Shown here one piece after another: positions 7,029-63,078 of a stretch of 64,000 bases of DNA. Each line of letters begins with the position of its first letter. The stretch's first letter is position 1. The notes under the pieces were generated by a model. That model worked only from the letters and a program-made list of their open reading frames with translations. It was not told the origin of the DNA and searched no databases. The stretch lies in the NCBI GenBank assembly GCA_027337125.1, contig GCA_027337125.1_3057.1, one strand, 5' to 3'. Source of the DNA: a phage. A program made the translations under genes and the position numbers.

Positions 7029-8456
7029 GTGGTAGAAATTATTCTTTCTCATCTCATATTTGATCAAGCTTATTTTTCAAAAGTTTGGCCATATATGGAT
7101 TCAGAATATTTTGAAAGTGGTCCAGCTAAAAATACATTCAAATTAATTAAATCTCATGTTAATGAGTACCATAGCGTTCCATCTATTAATGCGTTAAATG
7201 TTGCATTAGAAAATAGTTCATTTACTGAAACAGAATATTCTGGTGTAAAAACACTTATTTCGAAACTAGCCGATTCTCCAGAAGACCACAGCTGGTTAGT
7301 AAAAGAAACAGAAAAATATGTTCAGCAAAGGGCGATGTTTAATGCTACGTCTAAAATAATTGAAATTCAAACTAATGCTGAGCTTCCTCCGGAAAAACGA
7401 AATAAGAAAATGCCGGATGTTGGTGCTATTCCTGACATCATGCGCCAAGCATTATCAATTTCATTTGATAGTTACGTTGGCCATGATTGGATGGATGACT
7501 ACGAAGCACGTTGGCTATCTTATATGAATAAAGCTCGTAAGGTTCCATTTAAACTCAAAATTCTAAATAAAATTACTAAAGGCGGAGCTGAGACTGGAAC
7601 ACTGAACGTTTTAATGGCTGGTGTTAACGTTGGTAAGTCATTAGGTCTATGTTCATTGGCAGCAGATTATTTACAACTCGGTCATAATGTTCTTTACATT
7701 TCAATGGAAATGGCAGAAGAAGTCTGTGCTAAACGTATTGACGCTAATATGCTCGATGTTTCTCTTGATGACATTGATGATGGGCATATTTCTTATGCTG
7801 AGTATAAAGGAAAAATGGAAAAATGGCGTGAGAAATCTACTCTCGGCCGTTTAATCGTTAAACAGTATCCTACTGGCGGAGCAGACGCTAATACATTTAG
7901 ATCGCTTTTAAACGAATTAAAGCTCAAGAAGAATTTTGTTCCAACAATCATTATTGTTGACTATCTAGGTATTTGTAAATCTTGCCGCATCAGAGTTTAC
8001 TCAGAAAATAGTTACACAACTGTTAAAGCTATCGCAGAGGAATTGCGTGCTCTGGCTGTTGAAACAGAAACTGTTCTTTGGACTGCAGCGCAGGTTGGTA
8101 AACAAGCTTGGGATTCTTCCGATGTTAACATGAGCGATATTGCAGAATCCGCCGGTCTTCCAGCAACAGCCGATTTTATGCTTGCGGTCATTGAAACCGA
8201 GGAGTTAGCAGCTGCTGAACAACAACTCATTAAGCAAATCAAATCACGATATGGTGATAAGAATAAATGGAATAAGTTTTTGATGGGTGTTCAAAAAGGA
8301 AATCAGAAATGGGTAGAAATTGAACAAGATTCTACTCCAACTGAAGTGAACGAAGTAGCAGGTTCACAGCAGATTCAGGCTGAACAGAACCGCTATCAAA
8401 GAAACGAATCTACTCGAGCTCAGTTAGATGCTTTGGCGAATGAATTAAAATTTTAG
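7029..8456 (+). CDS. 41: Replicative DNA helicase gp41 (DnaB-like), GTG start
   Basis: 475 aa; Walker A GVNVGKS; GGAG RBS 5 nt upstream of GTG. Confidence 0.93.
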   Translation: MVEIILSHLIFDQAYFSKVWPYMDSEYFESGPAKNTFKLIKSHVNEYHSVPSINALNVALENSSFTETEYSGVKTLISKLADSPEDHSWLVKETEKYVQQRAMFNATSKIIEIQTNAELPPEKRNKKMPDVGAIPDIMRQALSISFDSYVGHDWMDDYEARWLSYMNKARKVPFKLKILNKITKGGAETGTLNVLMAGVNVGKSLGLCSLAADYLQLGHNVLYISMEMAEEVCAKRIDANMLDVSLDDIDDGHISYAEYKGKMEKWREKSTLGRLIVKQYPTGGADANTFRSLLNELKLKKNFVPTIIIVDYLGICKSCRIRVYSENSYTTVKAIAEELRALAVETETVLWTAAQVGKQAWDSSDVNMSDIAESAGLPATADFMLAVIETEELAAAEQQLIKQIKSRYGDKNKWNKFLMGVQKGNQKWVEIEQDSTPTEVNEVAGSQQIQAEQNRYQRNESTRAQLDALANELKF

Positions 8457-8493
8457 TTTACAAGCTGACAAGACTATGGTATAGTAGTCTTGT
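8456..8493 (+). promoter_or_regulatory. Early promoter (GTTTAC 8456-8461, -10 TATAGT) with 9-bp inverted repeat 8468-8476/8485-8493 enclosing the -10
   Basis: Promoter consensus plus perfect inverted repeat ACAAGACTA/TAGTCTTGT. Confidence 0.55.
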
Positions 8494-8514
8494 TGGTTAA
8501 ATGAGGAGATCGTT

Positions 8515-8697
8515 ATGGAATTGGTAAAGGTAGTTTTTATGGGGTGGTTTAAGAATGAAAGCGTGTTTACTAAAGAAATCACAATGATGAAAGATGACGT
8601 TCAATGGGCTACTACTCAATATGCTGAAGTTAATAAAGCATTAGTTAAAGCTTTCATTGATGACAAGAAAGTGTGTGAAGTGGATTGCAGAGGATAA
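8515..8697 (+). CDS. dmd: Dmd antitoxin (inhibitor of host RnlA/LsoA toxins), 60 aa
   Basis: 60-aa ORF with GAGGAG RBS immediately downstream of 41; sequence matches T4 Dmd (gene 61.5). Confidence 0.75.
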   Translation: MELVKVVFMGWFKNESVFTKEITMMKDDVQWATTQYAEVNKALVKAFIDDKKVCEVDCRG

Positions 8698-8698
8698 T

Positions 8699-8941
8699 AT
8701 GCACATTGTTTTATTTAAACCTACTCCGTATAATGTCAAGAAAAATACTCAATTCAAAGCACTTGTTGCAGATACGTGGGAATTGGTGTTAGATATTCCA
8801 GCAGAAGAAAGTCCTCCATTTGGTCGAGTGGAATTTATTAAGTTTGCTGTGCGCCCTACGAAGCGACAGATTCGCCAATGCAAAAGATACTTTCGTAAAA
8901 TCGTCAAGTTAGAGAAACAGTTATTGATGCTAGTAAAATAG
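8699..8941 (+). CDS. Hypothetical protein (80 aa; basic C-terminus)
   Basis: ATG 8699 with AGAGGA RBS; 61.x-type small ORF. Confidence 0.5.
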   Translation: MHIVLFKPTPYNVKKNTQFKALVADTWELVLDIPAEESPPFGRVEFIKFAVRPTKRQIRQCKRYFRKIVKLEKQLLMLVK

Positions 8942-8943
8942 TA

Positions 8944-8985
8944 GTTTACAAGCTGATAGAGTTGTGTTATAGTAATTCTATCAGC
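8944..8985 (+). promoter_or_regulatory. Early promoter (GTTTAC 8944-8949, -10 TATAGT) with 9-bp inverted repeat 8952-8960/8977-8985
   Basis: GCTGATAGA ... TCTATCAGC flanks the -10. Confidence 0.55.
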
Positions 8986-9004
8986 TAATCGTGGAGAAAA
9001 GAAA

Positions 9005-9259
9005 ATGATGCTAGTTAATAGAGAATATCAGTTTAAATCAGAAGAAGATTTGGAAAAATTCGCGAGTGGTTGTGAACTGAATAGACGCACAGCTAAAGTC
9101 ATAGGATTAAAACCCTTTACAGTTCTAGATTGTGAAGTTTCTAAATTCCGCAGAGGGTGTTCTATTAGCGGTCATGCTCTGGTTGATGGGAACACATTTT
9201 TCTTTGTTTTTAGCGTCAGAGAACTTTTATTGATTAACGAACTTGAGGAAATAAAATAG
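9005..9259 (+). CDS. Hypothetical protein (84 aa)
   Basis: ATG with GGAGA RBS. Confidence 0.5.
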   Translation: MMLVNREYQFKSEEDLEKFASGCELNRRTAKVIGLKPFTVLDCEVSKFRRGCSISGHALVDGNTFFFVFSVRELLLINELEEIK

Positions 9260-11063: not shown

Positions 11064-11097
11064 GTTTACTTTCTCAGCTTGTTATGGTATTATAAAA
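11064..11097 (+). promoter_or_regulatory. Early promoter (GTTTAC 11064-11069, extended -10 TGGTATTATAAA)
   Basis: Consensus early promoter about 25 nt upstream of the 186-aa ORF RBS. Confidence 0.55.
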
Positions 11098-11118
11098 TAA
11101 ACTGCTGAGGATAATATA

Positions 11119-13365: not shown

Positions 13366-13370
13366 ATTCA

Positions 13371-13396
13371 GGGACTCCTTCGGGAGTCCTTTTTTC
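13371..13396 (+). terminator. Intrinsic terminator after soc (GGGACUCC-UUCG-GGAGUCC + U6)
   Basis: Perfect hairpin with UUCG loop and T-tract. Confidence 0.75.
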
Positions 13397-15512: not shown

Positions 15513-15541
15513 TGTTTACTTTCCTTTCTAACGATGATATG
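15513..15541 (+). promoter_or_regulatory. Early promoter (GTTTAC 15513-15518, -10 TATGAT)
   Basis: Promoter consensus upstream of modB. Confidence 0.5.
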
Positions 15542-15569
15542 ATAGCTTCTGAAGTATACGGAGGCTATC

Positions 15570-16193
15570 ATGATTATTAATCTTGCAGATGTTGAACAGT
15601 TATCTATAAAAGCTGAAAGCGTTGATTTTCAATATGATATGTATAAAAAGGTCTGTGAAAAATTTACTGACTTTGAACAGTCAATTCTTTGGCAATGTAT
15701 GGAAGCCAAAAAGAATGAAGCTCTTCATCGGCAGTTGAATAAAATCATTAAAAAGCATTTAACTAAATCACCTTATCAGCTATATCGTGGTATATCAAAA
15801 TCGACAAAAGAACTCATTAAAGATTTACAAGTCGGAGAAGTGTTTTCAACGAACAGAGTAGATTCATTTACTACTAGTTTGCACACAGCGTGTTCTTTTT
15901 CTTATGCTGAATATTTTACTGAAACAATACTTCGCTTAAAAACTGATAAAGCTTTTAATTACTCTGACCATATCAGCGATATTATACTTTCTTCTCCTAA
16001 TACTGAGTTTAAGTATACATATGAAGATACTGATGGATTAGATTCAGAACGTACTGATAACTTAATGATGATTGTGCGTGAACAAGAATGGATGATTCCA
16101 ATTGGAAAGTATAAAATAACTTCTATTTCAAAAGAAAAATTACATGATTCATTTGGAACATTTAAAGTGTATGATATTGAGGTAGTTGAATGA
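15570..16193 (+). CDS. modB: Mono-ADP-ribosyltransferase ModB (207 aa)
   Basis: ART signature R (LYRG), S-T-S (FTTS), E-x-E (EQEWMIP); length and position match T4 ModB. Confidence 0.8.
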   Translation: MIINLADVEQLSIKAESVDFQYDMYKKVCEKFTDFEQSILWQCMEAKKNEALHRQLNKIIKKHLTKSPYQLYRGISKSTKELIKDLQVGEVFSTNRVDSFTTSLHTACSFSYAEYFTETILRLKTDKAFNYSDHISDIILSSPNTEFKYTYEDTDGLDSERTDNLMMIVREQEWMIPIGKYKITSISKEKLHDSFGTFKVYDIEVVE

Positions 16194-16848: not shown

Positions 16849-16878
16849 GTTTACAAGCTGAAGTAAAAATGTTATAAT
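16849..16878 (+). promoter_or_regulatory. Early promoter (GTTTAC 16849-16854, -10 TATAAT 16873-16878)
   Basis: 18-bp spacer. Confidence 0.6.
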
Positions 16879-20475: not shown

Positions 20476-20505
20476 GTTTACTTCCTCGGTTAGTTGTGGT
20501 ATTAT
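20476..20505 (+). promoter_or_regulatory. Early promoter (GTTTAC 20476-20481, -10 TATTAT 20500-20505)
   Basis: 18-bp spacer, TGGTATTAT extended -10. Confidence 0.55.
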
Positions 20506-20532
20506 AACACCATAGTTACTGAGGATAATAAA

Positions 20533-21580: not shown

Positions 21581-21616
21581 GTTTACAAACTCTTGGGACC
21601 AGAGTATAATGGTCCC
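21581..21616 (+). promoter_or_regulatory. Early promoter (GTTTAC 21581-21586, -10 TATAAT 21605-21610) with GGGACC/GGTCCC inverted repeat flanking the -10
   Basis: Consensus hexamers; 6-bp inverted repeat 21595-21600/21611-21616. Confidence 0.6.
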
Positions 21617-21654
21617 GCGGAGTATAAAATCTTTTTAACAAGTGAGAGATAACT

Positions 21655-22146: not shown

Positions 22147-22151
22147 AATTT

Positions 22152-22221
22152 AAAATTTTTTCATAAAACTATATACATCAGTAGTTGATTATGGTACTAT
22201 ATCAATATCAACTACTGATAC
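22152..22221 (+). repeat. Promoter-cassette repeat copy lacking GTTTAC -35, with 13-bp perfect inverted repeat (22177-22189 / 22207-22219) around the -10
   Basis: ATCAGTAGTTGAT ... ATCAACTACTGAT encloses tatggtactata; shares 3' half with cassettes at 2711, 34138, 51432. Confidence 0.6.
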
Positions 22222-22244
22222 AGAAAAACAACTTGGAGAATAAA

Positions 22245-23997: not shown

Positions 23998-24049
23998 AGC
24001 TTTATGATTACCGGAGTATAATATTCCCGAAACCAAACGAGGATAAGTG

Positions 24050-25867
24050 ATGATTAAGAATGAAATTAAAATTCTGAGCGATATTGAACATATCAAAAAG
24101 CGTAGCGGCATGTACATTGGTTCTTCTGCTAATGAAATGCATGAGCGCTTTCTGTTTGGTAAATGGGAAAGTGTTCAGTATGTACCTGGTCTTGTTAAGC
24201 TTATTGATGAAATTATCGATAACTCAGTAGATGAAGGTATTCGTACTAAGTTTAAATTCGCGAATAAAATTAATGTTACTATTAAAAACAATCAAGTAAC
24301 AGTTGAAGATAACGGTCGTGGTATTCCACAAGCGATGGTTAAAACACCTACTGGTGAAGAAATTCCTGGTCCTGTTGCTGCCTGGACTATTCCAAAAGCA
24401 GGTGGTAACTTCGGTGATGATAAAGAACGCGTCACTGGCGGTATGAACGGTGTTGGTTCTAGTTTAACTAACATTTTTTCTGTGATGTTTGTCGGTGAAA
24501 CTGGCGACGGTCAAAATAATATTGTAGTTCGTTGTTCAAATGGCATGGAAAATAAATCATGGGAAACTATTCCTGGAAAATGGAAGGGAACACGTGTTAC
24601 TTTCATTCCTGATTTTATGTCATTTGAAACTAATGAGCTATCTCAAGTTTATCTTGACATTACATTAGATCGCCTCCAGACACTTGCAGTAGTTTATCCT
24701 GATATTCAATTTACCTTTAATGGTAAAAAGGTTCAGGGTAATTTTAAGAAATATGCACGCCAATATGATGAGCATGCTATCGTTCAAGAACAGGAAAATT
24801 GCTCTATTGCGGTTGGTCGTTCACCGGATGGTTTTCGTCAATTAACATACGTCAATAACATTCATACTAAGAATGGTGGTCATCACATTGACTGTGTTAT
24901 GGATGATATTTGTGAAGACCTTATTCCACAAATCAAACGTAAGTTCAAAATTGATGTAACTAAAGCACGTGTTAAAGAATGTTTGACTATCGTTATGTTT
25001 GTCCGTGATATGAAAAACATGCGATTTGATTCTCAAACTAAAGAGCGTTTGACTTCTCCATTTGGTGAAATTCGTAGTCATATTCAGCTTGATGCTAAAA
25101 AGATTTCACGTGCTATTTTAAATAATGAAGCAATTTTAATGCCAATTATTGAAGCTGCTTTGGCTCGTAAATTGGCGGCAGAAAAAGCAGCAGAAACTAA
25201 AGCAGCTAAAAAGGCTTCTAAAGCTAAGGTTCATAAACATATTAAAGCGAATCTTTGTGGTAAAGATGCTGACACTACTCTTTTCTTGACTGAGGGTGAT
25301 TCGGCTATTGGGTATCTTATTGATGTTCGTGATAAAGAACTTCATGGTGGTTATCCATTACGTGGTAAAGTTCTCAACAGCTGGGGTATGTCATATGCTG
25401 ATATGCTTAAAAATAAAGAACTGTTTGATATTTGCGCAATCACTGGATTAGTTCTTGGTGAAAAAGCCGAAAACTTGAATTATCATAATATTGCTATTAT
25501 GACTGACGCTGACCACGATGGTCTAGGAAGCATTTATCCTTCTCTGCTCGGATTTTTTAGTAATTGGCCAGAACTGTTTGAACAAGGAAGAATTCGCTTT
25601 GTCAAAACTCCTGTAATCATCGCTCAGGTCGGTAAAAAACAAGAATGGTTTTATACAGTCGCTGAATATGAGAGTGCCAAAGATGCTCTACCTAAACATA
25701 GCATCCGTTATATTAAAGGACTTGGCTCTTTGGAAAAATCTGAATATCGTGAGATGATTCAAAACCCAGTATATGATGTTGTTAAACTTCCTGAGAATTG
25801 GAAAGAGCTTTTTGAAATGCTCATGGGAGATAATGCTGACCTTCGTAAAGAATGGATGAGCCAGTAG
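24050..25867 (+). CDS. 39: DNA topoisomerase II large subunit gp39, unsplit form (605 aa)
   Basis: GHKL ATPase, TOPRIM (EGDSA, DADHDG), KGLG and C-terminal LMGD motifs all in one ORF; no separate gene 60. Confidence 0.9.
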   Translation: MIKNEIKILSDIEHIKKRSGMYIGSSANEMHERFLFGKWESVQYVPGLVKLIDEIIDNSVDEGIRTKFKFANKINVTIKNNQVTVEDNGRGIPQAMVKTPTGEEIPGPVAAWTIPKAGGNFGDDKERVTGGMNGVGSSLTNIFSVMFVGETGDGQNNIVVRCSNGMENKSWETIPGKWKGTRVTFIPDFMSFETNELSQVYLDITLDRLQTLAVVYPDIQFTFNGKKVQGNFKKYARQYDEHAIVQEQENCSIAVGRSPDGFRQLTYVNNIHTKNGGHHIDCVMDDICEDLIPQIKRKFKIDVTKARVKECLTIVMFVRDMKNMRFDSQTKERLTSPFGEIRSHIQLDAKKISRAILNNEAILMPIIEAALARKLAAEKAAETKAAKKASKAKVHKHIKANLCGKDADTTLFLTEGDSAIGYLIDVRDKELHGGYPLRGKVLNSWGMSYADMLKNKELFDICAITGLVLGEKAENLNYHNIAIMTDADHDGLGSIYPSLLGFFSNWPELFEQGRIRFVKTPVIIAQVGKKQEWFYTVAEYESAKDALPKHSIRYIKGLGSLEKSEYREMIQNPVYDVVKLPENWKELFEMLMGDNADLRKEWMSQ

Positions 25868-25898
25868 TTTAATTATACCACAAGGATGTGGTATAATT
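25866..25898 (+). promoter_or_regulatory. Hairpin-promoter element: -35-like GTTTAA followed by perfect 12-bp inverted repeat AATTATACCACA/TGTGGTATAATT
   Basis: Right arm contains extended -10 TGGTATAAT; loop agga. Confidence 0.5.
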
Positions 25899-25922
25899 AA
25901 TTGGGCAAATGAGGATATTGAA

Positions 25923-29848: not shown

Positions 29849-30338
29849 CTTGACTAGTGAAATGAAGGTCAAAATTGCTGATACAGCAAGATACTCTTTA
29901 AAACAAAATCCTAATCAGGATAAAGCAGAAGTTATCGAAAGATGCCGTATTGCGGTGTACGCAGAGTTTTTTGTAGCAGATTGGCTAAGCGGATATGTTA
30001 ACAAAGGACAAGAGGATGTTAATGACCCGTATACATATGCATGGGATGTACTGGCGCATCCAAAATACTGCGGGCTTCGTGTAGAAGTCAAAACACATCA
30101 AACTGACTCACGTTGGATTTCGGTAACAACCGGATGCAGCGGAGAGTATCCATACGGTTCTGGAATAAATCTAGGGCCCATTCTGAATCACCAAGTCGCT
30201 GACTGTATAATTATATTCAACACTAAAGAAATTCATCCAGGTGTCATCAAGTACACTCCGAAGTTCATCGGTGATAGAGAAGACCTTCGTAAAGTTGTAA
30301 GAAAAAGCAACTACAACGGATGGTATCTTTCCATTTAA
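29781..30338 (+). CDS. denB: Endonuclease IV (DenB), 185 aa; start uncertain (overlaps upstream ORF by 68 nt)
   Basis: Size and position (rIIB to ndd) as T4 denB; AAAGGA RBS 8 nt upstream. Confidence 0.55.
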   Translation: MQKTNPGLQRLFQIPTFTLSNNDLTSEMKVKIADTARYSLKQNPNQDKAEVIERCRIAVYAEFFVADWLSGYVNKGQEDVNDPYTYAWDVLAHPKYCGLRVEVKTHQTDSRWISVTTGCSGEYPYGSGINLGPILNHQVADCIIIFNTKEIHPGVIKYTPKFIGDREDLRKVVRKSNYNGWYLSI

Positions 30339-30354
30339 AAATTTTCACAAAACG

Positions 30355-30385
30355 GTTTACAAACCACAAGGACTGTGGTACTATA
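30355..30385 (+). promoter_or_regulatory. Early promoter cassette (GTTTAC 30355-30360, -10 TACTAT 30380-30385)
   Basis: Near-identical to cassettes at 2711, 34138, 51432. Confidence 0.6.
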
Positions 30386-30412
30386 CAACTATCAACTGCG
30401 GAGGAGCGGAAA

Positions 30413-30860: not shown

Positions 30861-30890
30861 GTTTACAAGACTGTTCCTCTGTGGTATTAT
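30861..30890 (+). promoter_or_regulatory. Early promoter (GTTTAC 30861-30866, -10 TATTAT 30885-30890)
   Basis: Consensus early promoter. Confidence 0.55.
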
Positions 30891-30915
30891 TCTATCAACT
30901 ATGGAGGAACAGAAA

Positions 30916-34101: not shown

Positions 34102-34106
34102 TTTTA

Positions 34107-34134
34107 GGGAGAGCCGAGGCTCTCCCTTTTTTAT
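34107..34134 (+). terminator. Intrinsic terminator (GGGAGAGCC-gag-GGCUCUCCC + U6)
   Basis: 9-bp perfect stem and T-tract. Confidence 0.8.
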
Positions 34135-34157
34135 TTTAAAAATTTTTTCACAAAACG

Positions 34158-34187
34158 GTTTACAACCAAAGCATACTGTGGTACTAT
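34158..34187 (+). promoter_or_regulatory. Early promoter cassette for motA (GTTTAC 34158-34163, -10 TACTAT 34182-34187)
   Basis: Near-identical copy of the repeated promoter cassette. Confidence 0.65.
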
Positions 34188-34228
34188 ACAACTATCAACT
34201 ACTGATACAGAATTACGGAGATTAGAAA

Positions 34229-51402: not shown

Positions 51403-51428
51403 GGGGACCCTAGAGGTCCCCTTTTTTA
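51403..51428 (+). terminator. Intrinsic terminator after gene 32 (GGGGACC-cuaga-GGUCCCC + U6)
   Basis: 7-bp G/C stem and T-tract. Confidence 0.8.
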
Positions 51429-51452
51429 TTTCAAAAATTTTTTCACAAAACG

Positions 51453-51482
51453 GTTTACAAGCATAAAGCTTTATGGTACTAT
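51453..51482 (+). promoter_or_regulatory. Early promoter cassette (GTTTAC 51453-51458, -10 TACTAT 51477-51482)
   Basis: Near-identical to cassettes at 2711, 30338, 34138. Confidence 0.65.
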
Positions 51483-51525
51483 ACAACTATCGGCAATACT
51501 GCTGATGATTAAAGAGGAAAATAAT

Positions 51526-52182: not shown

Positions 52183-52217
52183 TTTACAGTAGGGTAGTAG
52201 TGTGATACTATTACCCT
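52182..52217 (+). promoter_or_regulatory. Early promoter (GTTTAC 52182-52187, -10 TACTAT) with AGGGTA/TACCCT inverted repeat flanking the -10
   Basis: Consensus hexamers and 6-bp inverted repeat. Confidence 0.55.
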
Positions 52218-52236
52218 ATCAACTAAGGAGAATAAA

Positions 52237-63017: not shown

Positions 63018-63078
63018 GCTGTTTACAAGTCCCTCGTGTTGTGTTATAGTAGTCTTACTGACATAACATGAGGACTTT

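Follow-up and report, generated by a model that had tools for sequence, protein, structure and literature searches.

Stem-loops embedded in the early promoters of a T4-like phage match published PeSLs and are probably RNA structures of read-through transcripts

Early promoters and the hairpins around their -10 elements

The window, that is, the whole stretch of 64,000 nt analysed, belongs to a Tequatrovirus with ~97-98% identity to T4. The motif GTTTAC-N18-TANNNT was found 20 times in it against 3.7 expected, 19 of the 20 copies being on the + strand, and most of these promoters were placed between the stop codon of an upstream gene and a Shine-Dalgarno sequence followed by ATG. By inspection, the 20 nt upstream of the promoters were mostly A/T-rich. 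The early promoters look real. Neither promoters nor terminators are annotated in the stretches looked at in the GenBank and RefSeq records of T4, and no Rfam family matched anywhere in the window. All the promoters and hairpins located below lie on the + strand.

The early promoter of dmd (gene 61.5; 8456-8485) displays a -35 GTTTAC at 8456-8461, overlapped by the stop codon of gene 41 (8454-8456), and a -10 TATAGT at 8480-8485; the start codon of dmd is at 8515. The hairpin around this -10 (8463-8498) has a perfect 9-bp core (8468-8476/8485-8493) and reaches 15 pairs, G·U included, on the sense strand (-21 kcal/mol, z = -4.7), with the Shine-Dalgarno of dmd outside it and free. It is unchanged in T4, and in a variant (L005/L014) its pairs are retained as G·U. 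The early promoter of an 84-aa ORF (9005-9259) occupies 8944-8973 (-35 at 8944-8949, -10 TATAGT at 8968-8973), flanked by an upstream stop codon at 8939 and the start codon at 9005. Its -10 is surrounded by a hairpin (8951-8986) with a perfect 10-bp core (8951-8960/8977-8986) and 14 pairs in RNA (-19.7 kcal/mol, z = -5.0). T4 lacks the cassette formed by promoter 8944 and ORF 9005-9259, identity returning at the -35 of the sp promoter. Both promoters read TTTACA-N17-TATAGT with a TG, at 8457-8485 and 8945-8973.

Four more elements of the same kind had been flagged. The hairpin of promoter 21581 (21589-21623) has a GGGACCA/TGGTCCC core around the -10 (21605-21610). At 22177-22219, a perfect 13-bp hairpin surrounds TACTAT (22195-22200) in a promoter-like context with a degenerate -35 (ATATAC); the sequence of its 3' arm, ATCAACTACTGAT, is conserved within a repeated promoter family. 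The hairpin at 25869-25900 (14 pairs, AGGA loop) follows a -35-like GTTTAA at 25867 and holds the -10 TATAAT (25892-25897) within its 3' arm. In that at 52189-52219, also of 14 pairs, the -10 TACTAT (52206-52211) is part of the 3' arm; this hairpin persists in 24 divergent homologues, whose arms co-vary. The initial annotation had described the six as perfect inverted repeats bracketing the -10 hexamer of GTTTAC promoters. The arms of all six pairs are indeed perfect reverse complements just where it had placed them, although the GTTTAC promoter does not hold for the 22177 element, nor the bracketing for the 25871 element, where the -10 is inside the 3' arm and not in the loop.

Further examples, absent from that annotation, were located at the promoters with -35 positions 11064, 15514, 20476, 30861, and 63021, where the hairpin masks the downstream Shine-Dalgarno (class B). 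The first (11071-11111) pairs a 5' arm TTCTCAGC in the promoter spacer with a 3' arm GCTGAGGA over the Shine-Dalgarno. The second (15533-15578) begins at the -10 (15538) and pairs with both the Shine-Dalgarno and the AUG of the downstream gene, whereas in the third (20483-20525) TTCCTCGG in the spacer pairs with CTGAGGA (the Shine-Dalgarno), the -10 being in the apical loop. The fourth (30871-30912) has a perfect 9-bp repeat, CTGTTCCTC/GAGGAACAG, extended to 15 pairs, and the Shine-Dalgarno is masked. The fifth (63027-63077; -24.4 kcal/mol) masks the Shine-Dalgarno of a 168-aa ORF; 21 of 23 homologues retain it, with arms that co-vary. About one third of the hairpins belonged to class B and about two thirds to class A, with the ribosome-binding site left free; the hairpins at dmd, 8944, 21581, and 52189 are of class A.

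Dependence on the upstream gene and effect on the ribosome-binding site

The presence of a hairpin depended on the gene upstream. It was found at 25 of 41 promoters with a stop codon at most 12 nt from the -35 and at 4 of 47 promoters otherwise (p = 2e-7); in the window alone the corresponding figures were 9 of 10 stop-abutting promoters and 1 of 10 others, the exception being the sp promoter (9259), which abuts a stop codon and yet has no hairpin. Promoters with room upstream have separate canonical terminators (13370, 34106, and 51403). In a Mosigvirus, gene 41 is followed by a UUCG terminator and then the promoter, instead of the embedded hairpin of T4. No significant negative association between an upstream canonical terminator and an embedded hairpin was obtained over the clusters as a whole (p = 0.41); the clean predictor of the hairpin is the distance from the stop codon to the -35, and not the presence of a terminator. 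The recurring geometry remarked on initially is best explained by the space available in an intergenic region of ~60 bp.

According to the function proposed for the stem-loops in the papers on PeSLs, the embedded hairpins would be efficient terminators ending the upstream transcripts, each gene being expressed from its own promoter only. A stem-loop of this type from RB49 lowered downstream lacZ expression like rrnB T1 (PMC2839356), embedded hairpins and separate canonical terminators look largely like alternative solutions at promoters, and in the Mosigvirus the place of the dmd hairpin is taken by a canonical terminator. Against this, none of the 29 embedded hairpins was followed by a U-tract (at least 5 T in the next 8 nt; mean 2.0 T), whereas genuine terminators in the window carry T6 runs; the embedded hairpins are therefore not classical intrinsic terminators, and the initial suggestion of an effect on termination is doubtful in that sense. 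The terminator scan likewise omitted the class A hairpins, those of dmd and the 84-aa ORF included, and listed only the class B structure at 15538-15572, and masking of the Shine-Dalgarno in class B would be pointless without read-through RNA. We consider efficient termination unlikely on this balance. Literature searches on maps of T4 transcript 3' ends retrieved nothing usable.

Predicted accessibility of the ribosome-binding site differed between the two classes. In class B it was 1.7-3 times higher in the promoter's own transcript than in the read-through one (ratios of 1.7-3.0 at the five window promoters 11064, 15514, 20476, 30861, and 63021), whereas in class A it was about equal in both (0.8-1.0 at 8456 and 8944). 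No masking of the Shine-Dalgarno was predicted at these last two promoters, those of dmd and the 84-aa ORF. This bears on a role in translational coupling, in which a ribosome that finishes translation at the adjacent stop codon would open the base of the hairpin and so control downstream access on polycistronic RNA. The strong tie of the hairpin to a stop codon within 12 nt of the -35 agrees with such a role, as does the identity of class B 3' arms with the Shine-Dalgarno. Coupling is nevertheless improbable, as two thirds of the hairpins, those of dmd and the 84-aa ORF among them, leave the ribosome-binding site equally accessible in the two transcripts, and to judge by the geometry the 5' arm, ~10-13 nt past the stop, would be at the edge of the terminating ribosome's reach.

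Selection on the sense strand and enrichment over chance

The sense strand folded better (MFE -13.8) than the antisense strand (-10.0), a gap that exceeds the genome-wide bias. Internal mismatches in promoter repeats were distributed as 15:3:3 for G·T, A·C, and others, respectively, vs. 42:44:152 in control repeats. For the hairpins of dmd, 15514, 20476, and 21581, all the substitutions found across close relatives preserve pairing, mostly as G·U.

More distant positional homologues (~25 phages) upstream of the 80-aa and 168-aa ORFs folded at -17.4 and -19.9 kcal/mol, respectively, as compared to -9.7 and -11.4 kcal/mol for chimeras. RNAalifold, run on the alignments of both sets of homologues, did not yield a common consensus structure, since the register of the helix differs from one arm family to the next, and 7-8 unrelated families occurred among the positional homologues at one locus; it was therefore replaced by the chimera test and by a count of pairs inside one register family. 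In that family 4 pairs and 10 cells showed compensatory change, which 0 of 500 shuffles equalled, and 81% were paired vs. at most 56% after sliding. Homologues without the promoter (L030, L031, and L058) were also without the hairpin. The hairpin is thus conserved, in close relatives through G·U substitutions and in divergent homologues with completely different, co-varying arms.

These substitution patterns indicate that the structure is under selection on the sense RNA rather than on the DNA. Of the two levels of action offered by the initial annotation, a hairpin on read-through transcripts is borne out by the better sense folding, the G·U mismatches, the co-varying arms, and the abutting upstream gene. 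A function at the DNA level, be it a cruciform exposing the -10, a sequence bound by a dimeric protein, or a substrate of recombination or resolving enzymes driving cassette shuffling, now appears very unlikely. Watson-Crick pairing is perfect over 9-13 bp in several of the repeats, cassette indels coincide with promoter junctions, and the authors of the PeSL papers speculated on a recombination protein that binds the stem-loop; however, the wobble is strand-asymmetric (15 G·T vs. 3 A·C), no arm sequence is conserved or shared between the families at one locus, the length and register of the helix vary, and dependence on the upstream ORF is not predicted by a DNA function intrinsic to the promoter.

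The hairpins were also enriched over every control. A fold of -16 kcal/mol or lower (RNA MFE) was reached by 10 of 20 promoter segments vs. 36 of 738 control tiles (4.9%; p = 3e-8) and 34 of 380 chimeras of left and right halves (8.9%; p = 8e-6), and perfect bracketing repeats of at least 7 bp were present in 6 of 21 promoters vs. 19 of 420 such chimeras (Fisher p = 5e-4). When 88 promoter clusters from diverse T4-like contigs were compared with 3211 control tiles of 66 nt, an inverted repeat score of at least 7 was obtained in 47 and 13%, respectively (p = 6e-14). The centre of the repeat lay within ~5 nt of the -10 in 31 of 41 promoter repeats vs. 26% of controls. Hairpin energies ranged from -17.8 to -24.4 kcal/mol, with z-scores of -3.5 to -5.0. 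That the repeats are accidental, or simply follow from AT-rich composition and the conservation of promoter sequence, can hardly be entertained: the 6-bp repeats (21595 and 52191) are individually unremarkable and 13% of random 66-nt tiles contain a repeat scoring at least 7, but this explanation is refuted by the tiles, by chimeras that preserve position-specific composition, by dinucleotide-shuffle z-scores of -3.3 to -5.0, and by the covariation of the arms.

Proposed role and comparison with known systems

The elements are probably RNA structures selected on read-through transcripts, and neither DNA cruciforms nor classical terminators. We favour as a likely reading that they are composite promoter/stem-loop elements (PeSLs) whose hairpin serves as intercistronic punctuation on read-through RNA. 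A strong sigma-70 early promoter would be packed into a gap of ~60 bp between two genes, and the hairpin would be built from the only freely variable positions, namely the spacer between -35 and -10 and the bases right after the -10, which would be why the -10 is found in or beside the loop. With the start site placed ~7 nt after the -10, the 5' arm is upstream of it; the promoter's own transcript should therefore be unstructured and only read-through RNA from the upstream gene should fold.

Attenuation, stabilisation, and translational masking are the consequences we infer. In class A, in which the hairpin comes directly after the stop codon of the upstream gene and does not cover the next ribosome-binding site, it would most likely provide an attenuator or pause site together with a 3'-end barrier stabilising the upstream message; such a barrier would become important once the RNA is cut within the following A-rich GGAG leader, presumably a target of the kind cleaved by T4 RegB. 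In class B, where the 3' arm is the Shine-Dalgarno or the AUG, read-through copies would be poorly translated and only transcripts begun at the embedded promoter would be fully open. It is conceivable, and we put it forward tentatively, that the two classes together form, in T4-like phages, a genome-wide switch on the origin of the transcript, primary RNA being open, translatable, and RegB-cleavable whereas read-through RNA would be folded and either masked or protected from nucleases. If so, once the early promoters are shut off, a defined group of genes would automatically cease to be translated, with the upstream messages still stabilised. The literature searched yielded no description of a systematic masking of ribosome-binding sites at early, as opposed to late, promoters that is conserved by covariation between genera.

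Telling RNA structures from DNA elements and terminators is useful for the annotation of T4-like genomes and for polycistronic RNA-seq data from infections. It also affects the engineering of phage cassettes, because an early promoter that is moved carries half a hairpin able to mask the next ribosome-binding site.

As regards known systems, the embedded hairpins resemble intrinsic terminators, including the T4 tetraloop type, in being stable hairpins directly 3' of a gene, with a distribution complementary to that of the canonical ones at 13370, 34106, and 51403. In contrast, none of the 29 has the U-tract that directly follows the G+C-rich hairpin of an intrinsic terminator, and the loop holds the -10 and not a tetraloop. 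REP elements in E. coli operons are intercistronic hairpins that stabilise 3' ends; by analogy, the hairpins described here also lie between cistrons and could stop 3'->5' exonucleases once an endonuclease has cut downstream. Hairpin promoters of the phage N4 type were considered and dropped, given the full sigma-70 consensus and a hairpin unable to form on the promoter's own transcript.

Closer to class B are the hairpins that occlude the ribosome-binding sites of T4 e, soc, 49, and I-TevI (reviewed in PMC3014915). There, too, the transcript from the embedded promoter lacks the 5' arm and read-through RNA hides the Shine-Dalgarno or AUG, a geometry shared by the class B elements at 11064, 15514, 20476, 30861, and 63021. 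The promoters of those genes are late, so that translation is delayed, whereas early promoters as found here would restrict it to the early period; the flagged elements at 8456 and 8944 differ further in leaving the ribosome-binding site unmasked.

By published description, the elements match the promoter-early stem-loops (PeSLs) of RB49/phi1 (Arbiol et al. 2010) and of T4/PST and KVP40/nt-1 (Comeau et al. 2014). Both sets combine an early promoter of the sigma-70 type and an AT-rich upstream region with a stem-loop within or next to the promoter, among the published sites most often in the -35/-10 spacer or across the -10; both are found after the stop codon of one gene and before the Shine-Dalgarno and ATG of the next, recur through the early regions, and go with indels of ORF cassettes, here that of promoter 8944 and the 84-aa ORF, absent from T4. 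The PeSL promoters of T4/PST are given as TTTACW-N17-TAYWAT, and a figure legend puts their stem-loops "just upstream" of the promoter (PMC4122927). The window has early promoters with the same 17-bp spacing, stable stem-loops, an intergenic position and, at the few junctions examined, association with ORF indels, a small extra ORF following the promoter-hairpin in L023/L025. The stems of RB49 are G/C tracts (GGGG...CCCC), whereas those found here are heterogeneous and A/T-richer; the PeSL papers call the stem-loops terminators, whereas these hairpins lack a U-tract, and masking of the ribosome-binding site and selection on sense RNA are undiscussed there. The elements are thus real and of an already known kind: rather than a new kind of element, promoter/stem-loops of the PeSL type are confirmed in a T4-like genome.

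Early promoters and their embedded hairpins

The 4-kb stretch around promoters 8456 and 8944 (named by -35 position) was 96-98.6% identical to many Tequatrovirus genomes and carries T4 genes 41, dmd (61.5), 61.4, sp, 61.2, 61.1, and 61. The motif GTTTAC-N18-TANNNT occurred 20 times in the window vs. 3.7 expected, 19 of the 20 on the + strand, which is the T4 early-transcription strand; in most cases the sites had an upstream stop codon on one side and a Shine-Dalgarno sequence plus ATG on the other. Their sequence and position identify them as T4-type sigma-70 early promoters. The dmd promoter (8456, + strand) matched T4 base for base, inverted repeat included, and promoter 8944 (+ strand) drives an 84-aa ORF (9005-9259) absent from T4.

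The initial annotation had described six inverted repeats bracketing the -10 of GTTTAC promoters, starting at 8468, 8952, 21595, 22177, 25871, and 52191. All six arm pairs were exact reverse complements, and the description held generally, except that 22177 has ATATAC for GTTTAC and that at 25871 the -10 lies inside the 3' arm. When folded as RNA, the stems were lengthened by G·U pairs to 14-15 pairs, with energies of -17.8 to -24.4 kcal/mol (z from -3.5 to -5.0 vs. dinucleotide shuffles). Comparable hairpins, not listed in the initial annotation, were found at 11064, 15514, 20476, 30861, and 63021.

These bracketing hairpins exceeded chance in every control applied and are statistically solid. 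Perfect bracketing repeats of at least 7 bp were present in 6 of 21 promoters vs. 19 of 420 chimeras (P = 5e-4); the chimeras pair left and right halves taken from different promoters and so preserve position-specific composition. Folds of -16 kcal/mol or lower were obtained for 10 of 20 promoter segments, as compared to 36 of 738 same-strand tiles (P = 3e-8) and 34 of 380 chimeras (P = 8e-6). Among 88 non-redundant GTTTAC promoters, collected around dda and nrdA in ~90 T4-like phage contigs, 47% reached an inverted repeat score of at least 7 vs. 13% of 3211 control tiles (P = 6e-14), and the repeat centre lay within ~5 nt of the -10 in 31 of 41 promoter repeats vs. 26% of controls.

Several promoters were related in sequence. 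GTTTACAAGCTGA directly follows the -35 in three of them (8456-8468, 8944-8956, and 16849-16861), pointing to a shared origin; a hairpin is present only in the two that adjoin an upstream stop codon. A promoter element of ~70-90 nt, reading AAAAATTTTTTCACAAAAC[GT]-GTTTAC...TGGTACTAT-ACAACTATCAACTACTGATAC, was present in five direct copies (2711-2780, 22151-22222, 30335-30400, 34138-34210, and 51433-51500; -35 degenerate, ATATAC, in the copy at 22171), and repeats of this length in direct orientation could serve as substrates for homologous recombination. Many window promoters showed a conserved CTATCAAC-like motif ~1-10 nt past the -10, close to where transcription should start (52213-52222 and 8978-8986, and also loci L016-L020 and L024-L045 of other T4-like phages); it frequently provides the 3' arm, complemented by GATAG in the spacer, and perhaps serves as initial transcribed sequence. 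Just before promoter 25867 ends an open frame of ~606 codons (about 24045-25865), a size which we take to be that of the unsplit topoisomerase large subunit of other T-even phages, equivalent to a fusion of T4 genes 39 and 60.

Conservation and dependence on the upstream gene

Positional homologues of two window promoters were located through the downstream proteins, an 80-aa ORF (52237) and a 168-aa ORF (63079), in ~25 phages with NrdA identities of 64-100%. The hairpin around the -10 was kept in essentially all of them with unrelated arm sequences (among them AGGGTA/TACCCT, AGGCTA/TAGCCT, GGTGTAGAGGC/GCTTCTACACC, TCCTCATCAG/CTGATGAGGA, and CCCATTTTGTT/AACAAAATGGG), so that the repeats proved conserved in related phages as co-varying arms, falling into 7-8 arm families per locus. 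Mean folds at the two loci were -17.4 and -19.9 kcal/mol for native sequences vs. -9.7 and -11.4 kcal/mol for inter-family chimeras (P < 1e-11). RNAalifold found no consensus for the homologue hairpins because the helix register shifts between arm families; within one register family, compensatory change was seen at 4 pairs (10 cells; 0 of 500 shuffles as high) and pairing was 81% vs. at most 56% with the partner slid. Where the promoter was missing (L030, L031, and L058), the hairpin was missing as well.

In the window, the hairpin occurred in 9 of 10 promoters with at most 11 nt between the upstream stop codon and the -35, and in 1 of 10 others; among the 88 promoter clusters, it occurred in 25 of 41 with an abutting stop codon vs. 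4 of 47 others (P = 2e-7). Three canonical intrinsic terminators, in which a T6 run follows a G+C-rich hairpin (13370-13391, with a UUCG tetraloop, ~34106-34125, and ~51403-51421), lie just upstream of early promoters with room upstream and without embedded hairpin, and promoters opening a transcription unit had neither. Past gene 41 of Escherichia phage LF82-35 (Mosigvirus; L010, 811-912), a UUCG terminator (GGAGACTTCGGTCTCC plus T's) is followed by an early promoter without embedded hairpin, an extra ORF, and dmd, whereas T4 has an embedded hairpin there. In a gap of ~60 bp, the -35, TG, -10, and Shine-Dalgarno would be fixed and only the spacer and the bases past the -10 would be free for complementarity; in our reading, any hairpin would therefore have to straddle the -10.

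Level of action and possible roles

The initial annotation had proposed either cruciform formation or protein binding on DNA, or a hairpin on read-through transcripts. Four lines point to selection on the sense RNA. Promoter segments folded better in sense than in antisense (-13.8 vs. -10.0 kcal/mol), a gap larger than the genome-wide strand bias. With a scoring that weighs all mismatches equally, internal G·T, A·C, and other mismatches numbered 15/3/3 in promoter repeats vs. 42/44/152 in control repeats (P = 0.009); a sense-strand G·T pairs as G·U in RNA but is mismatched in a cruciform or in the opposite strand. Hairpin substitutions in close relatives (dmd, 15514, 20476, and 21581 promoters) all retained pairing, most by changing A-U or G-C to G·U, as in the dmd variant of L005/L014. 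Finally, the hairpin depends on the presence of an upstream gene, which is not predicted by a promoter-intrinsic DNA function. The repeats themselves are confirmed, and the RNA half of their interpretation is supported while the DNA half is not.

With the start site taken as ~7 nt past the -10, as is usual for sigma-70 promoters, the 5' arm lies upstream of it, and folding is therefore possible in read-through RNA only. Classical intrinsic termination is unlikely, since none of 29 embedded hairpins was followed by a U-tract (mean of 2.0 T in the next 8 nt). In class B hairpins (11064, 15514, 20476, 30861, and 63021), the Shine-Dalgarno or AUG makes up the 3' arm, and the ribosome-binding site is predicted to be 1.7-3 times more accessible in RNA started at the embedded promoter than in read-through RNA. 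The same masking logic is established for T4 e, soc, 49, and I-TevI (PMC3014915), with late promoters there and early ones here. Class A hairpins, which leave the Shine-Dalgarno free and include 8456 and 8944, gave equal predicted accessibility in both RNAs (ratios 0.8-1.0) and end about 5-15 nt before an A-rich leader with GGAG. Sites of this type are cut by T4 RegB, which RNA structure is known to block. We infer that class A hairpins may act as attenuators and 3'-end barriers for the upstream message.

Relation to promoter-early stem-loops

The embedded promoter-hairpins are of an already described kind, the promoter-early stem-loops (PeSLs) of T4-type phages. In RB49/phi1, PeSLs are sigma-70 early promoters coupled to stem-loops, most commonly between -35 and -10 or over the -10; promoter activity was shown, one stem-loop reduced downstream lacZ like rrnB T1, and the elements were linked to cassette shuffling (Arbiol et al., 2010, PMC2839356). 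In T4/PST, the promoters read TTTACW-N17-TAYWAT and the stems AGNA...TCNT (Comeau et al., 2014, PMC4122927), a pattern that AGAC...GTCT at 8472/8487 (dmd) matches by inspection.

Between 61.4 and sp, a block of ~315 bp is inserted with respect to T4 (8925-9258), containing an alternative 3' end of 61.4, promoter 8944 with its hairpin, and the 84-aa ORF; T4 identity returns at the sp promoter -35 (9259). The block looks like a PeSL-type cassette, and the insertion fits the cassette behaviour predicted for these elements. A further indel beside a promoter/stem-loop was seen in two Tequatrovirus loci (L023, 6610-6700; L025, 6635-6725), where an extra small ORF (ATGTTCGCACC...) separates the homologue of promoter-hairpin 52182 from the 80-aa ORF. 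The PeSL papers make no mention of translation, ribosome-binding sites, or read-through; to their description the present analysis adds evidence for sense-RNA selection, the stop-codon rule, the missing U-tracts, and a sizeable subclass predicted to mask the ribosome-binding site.
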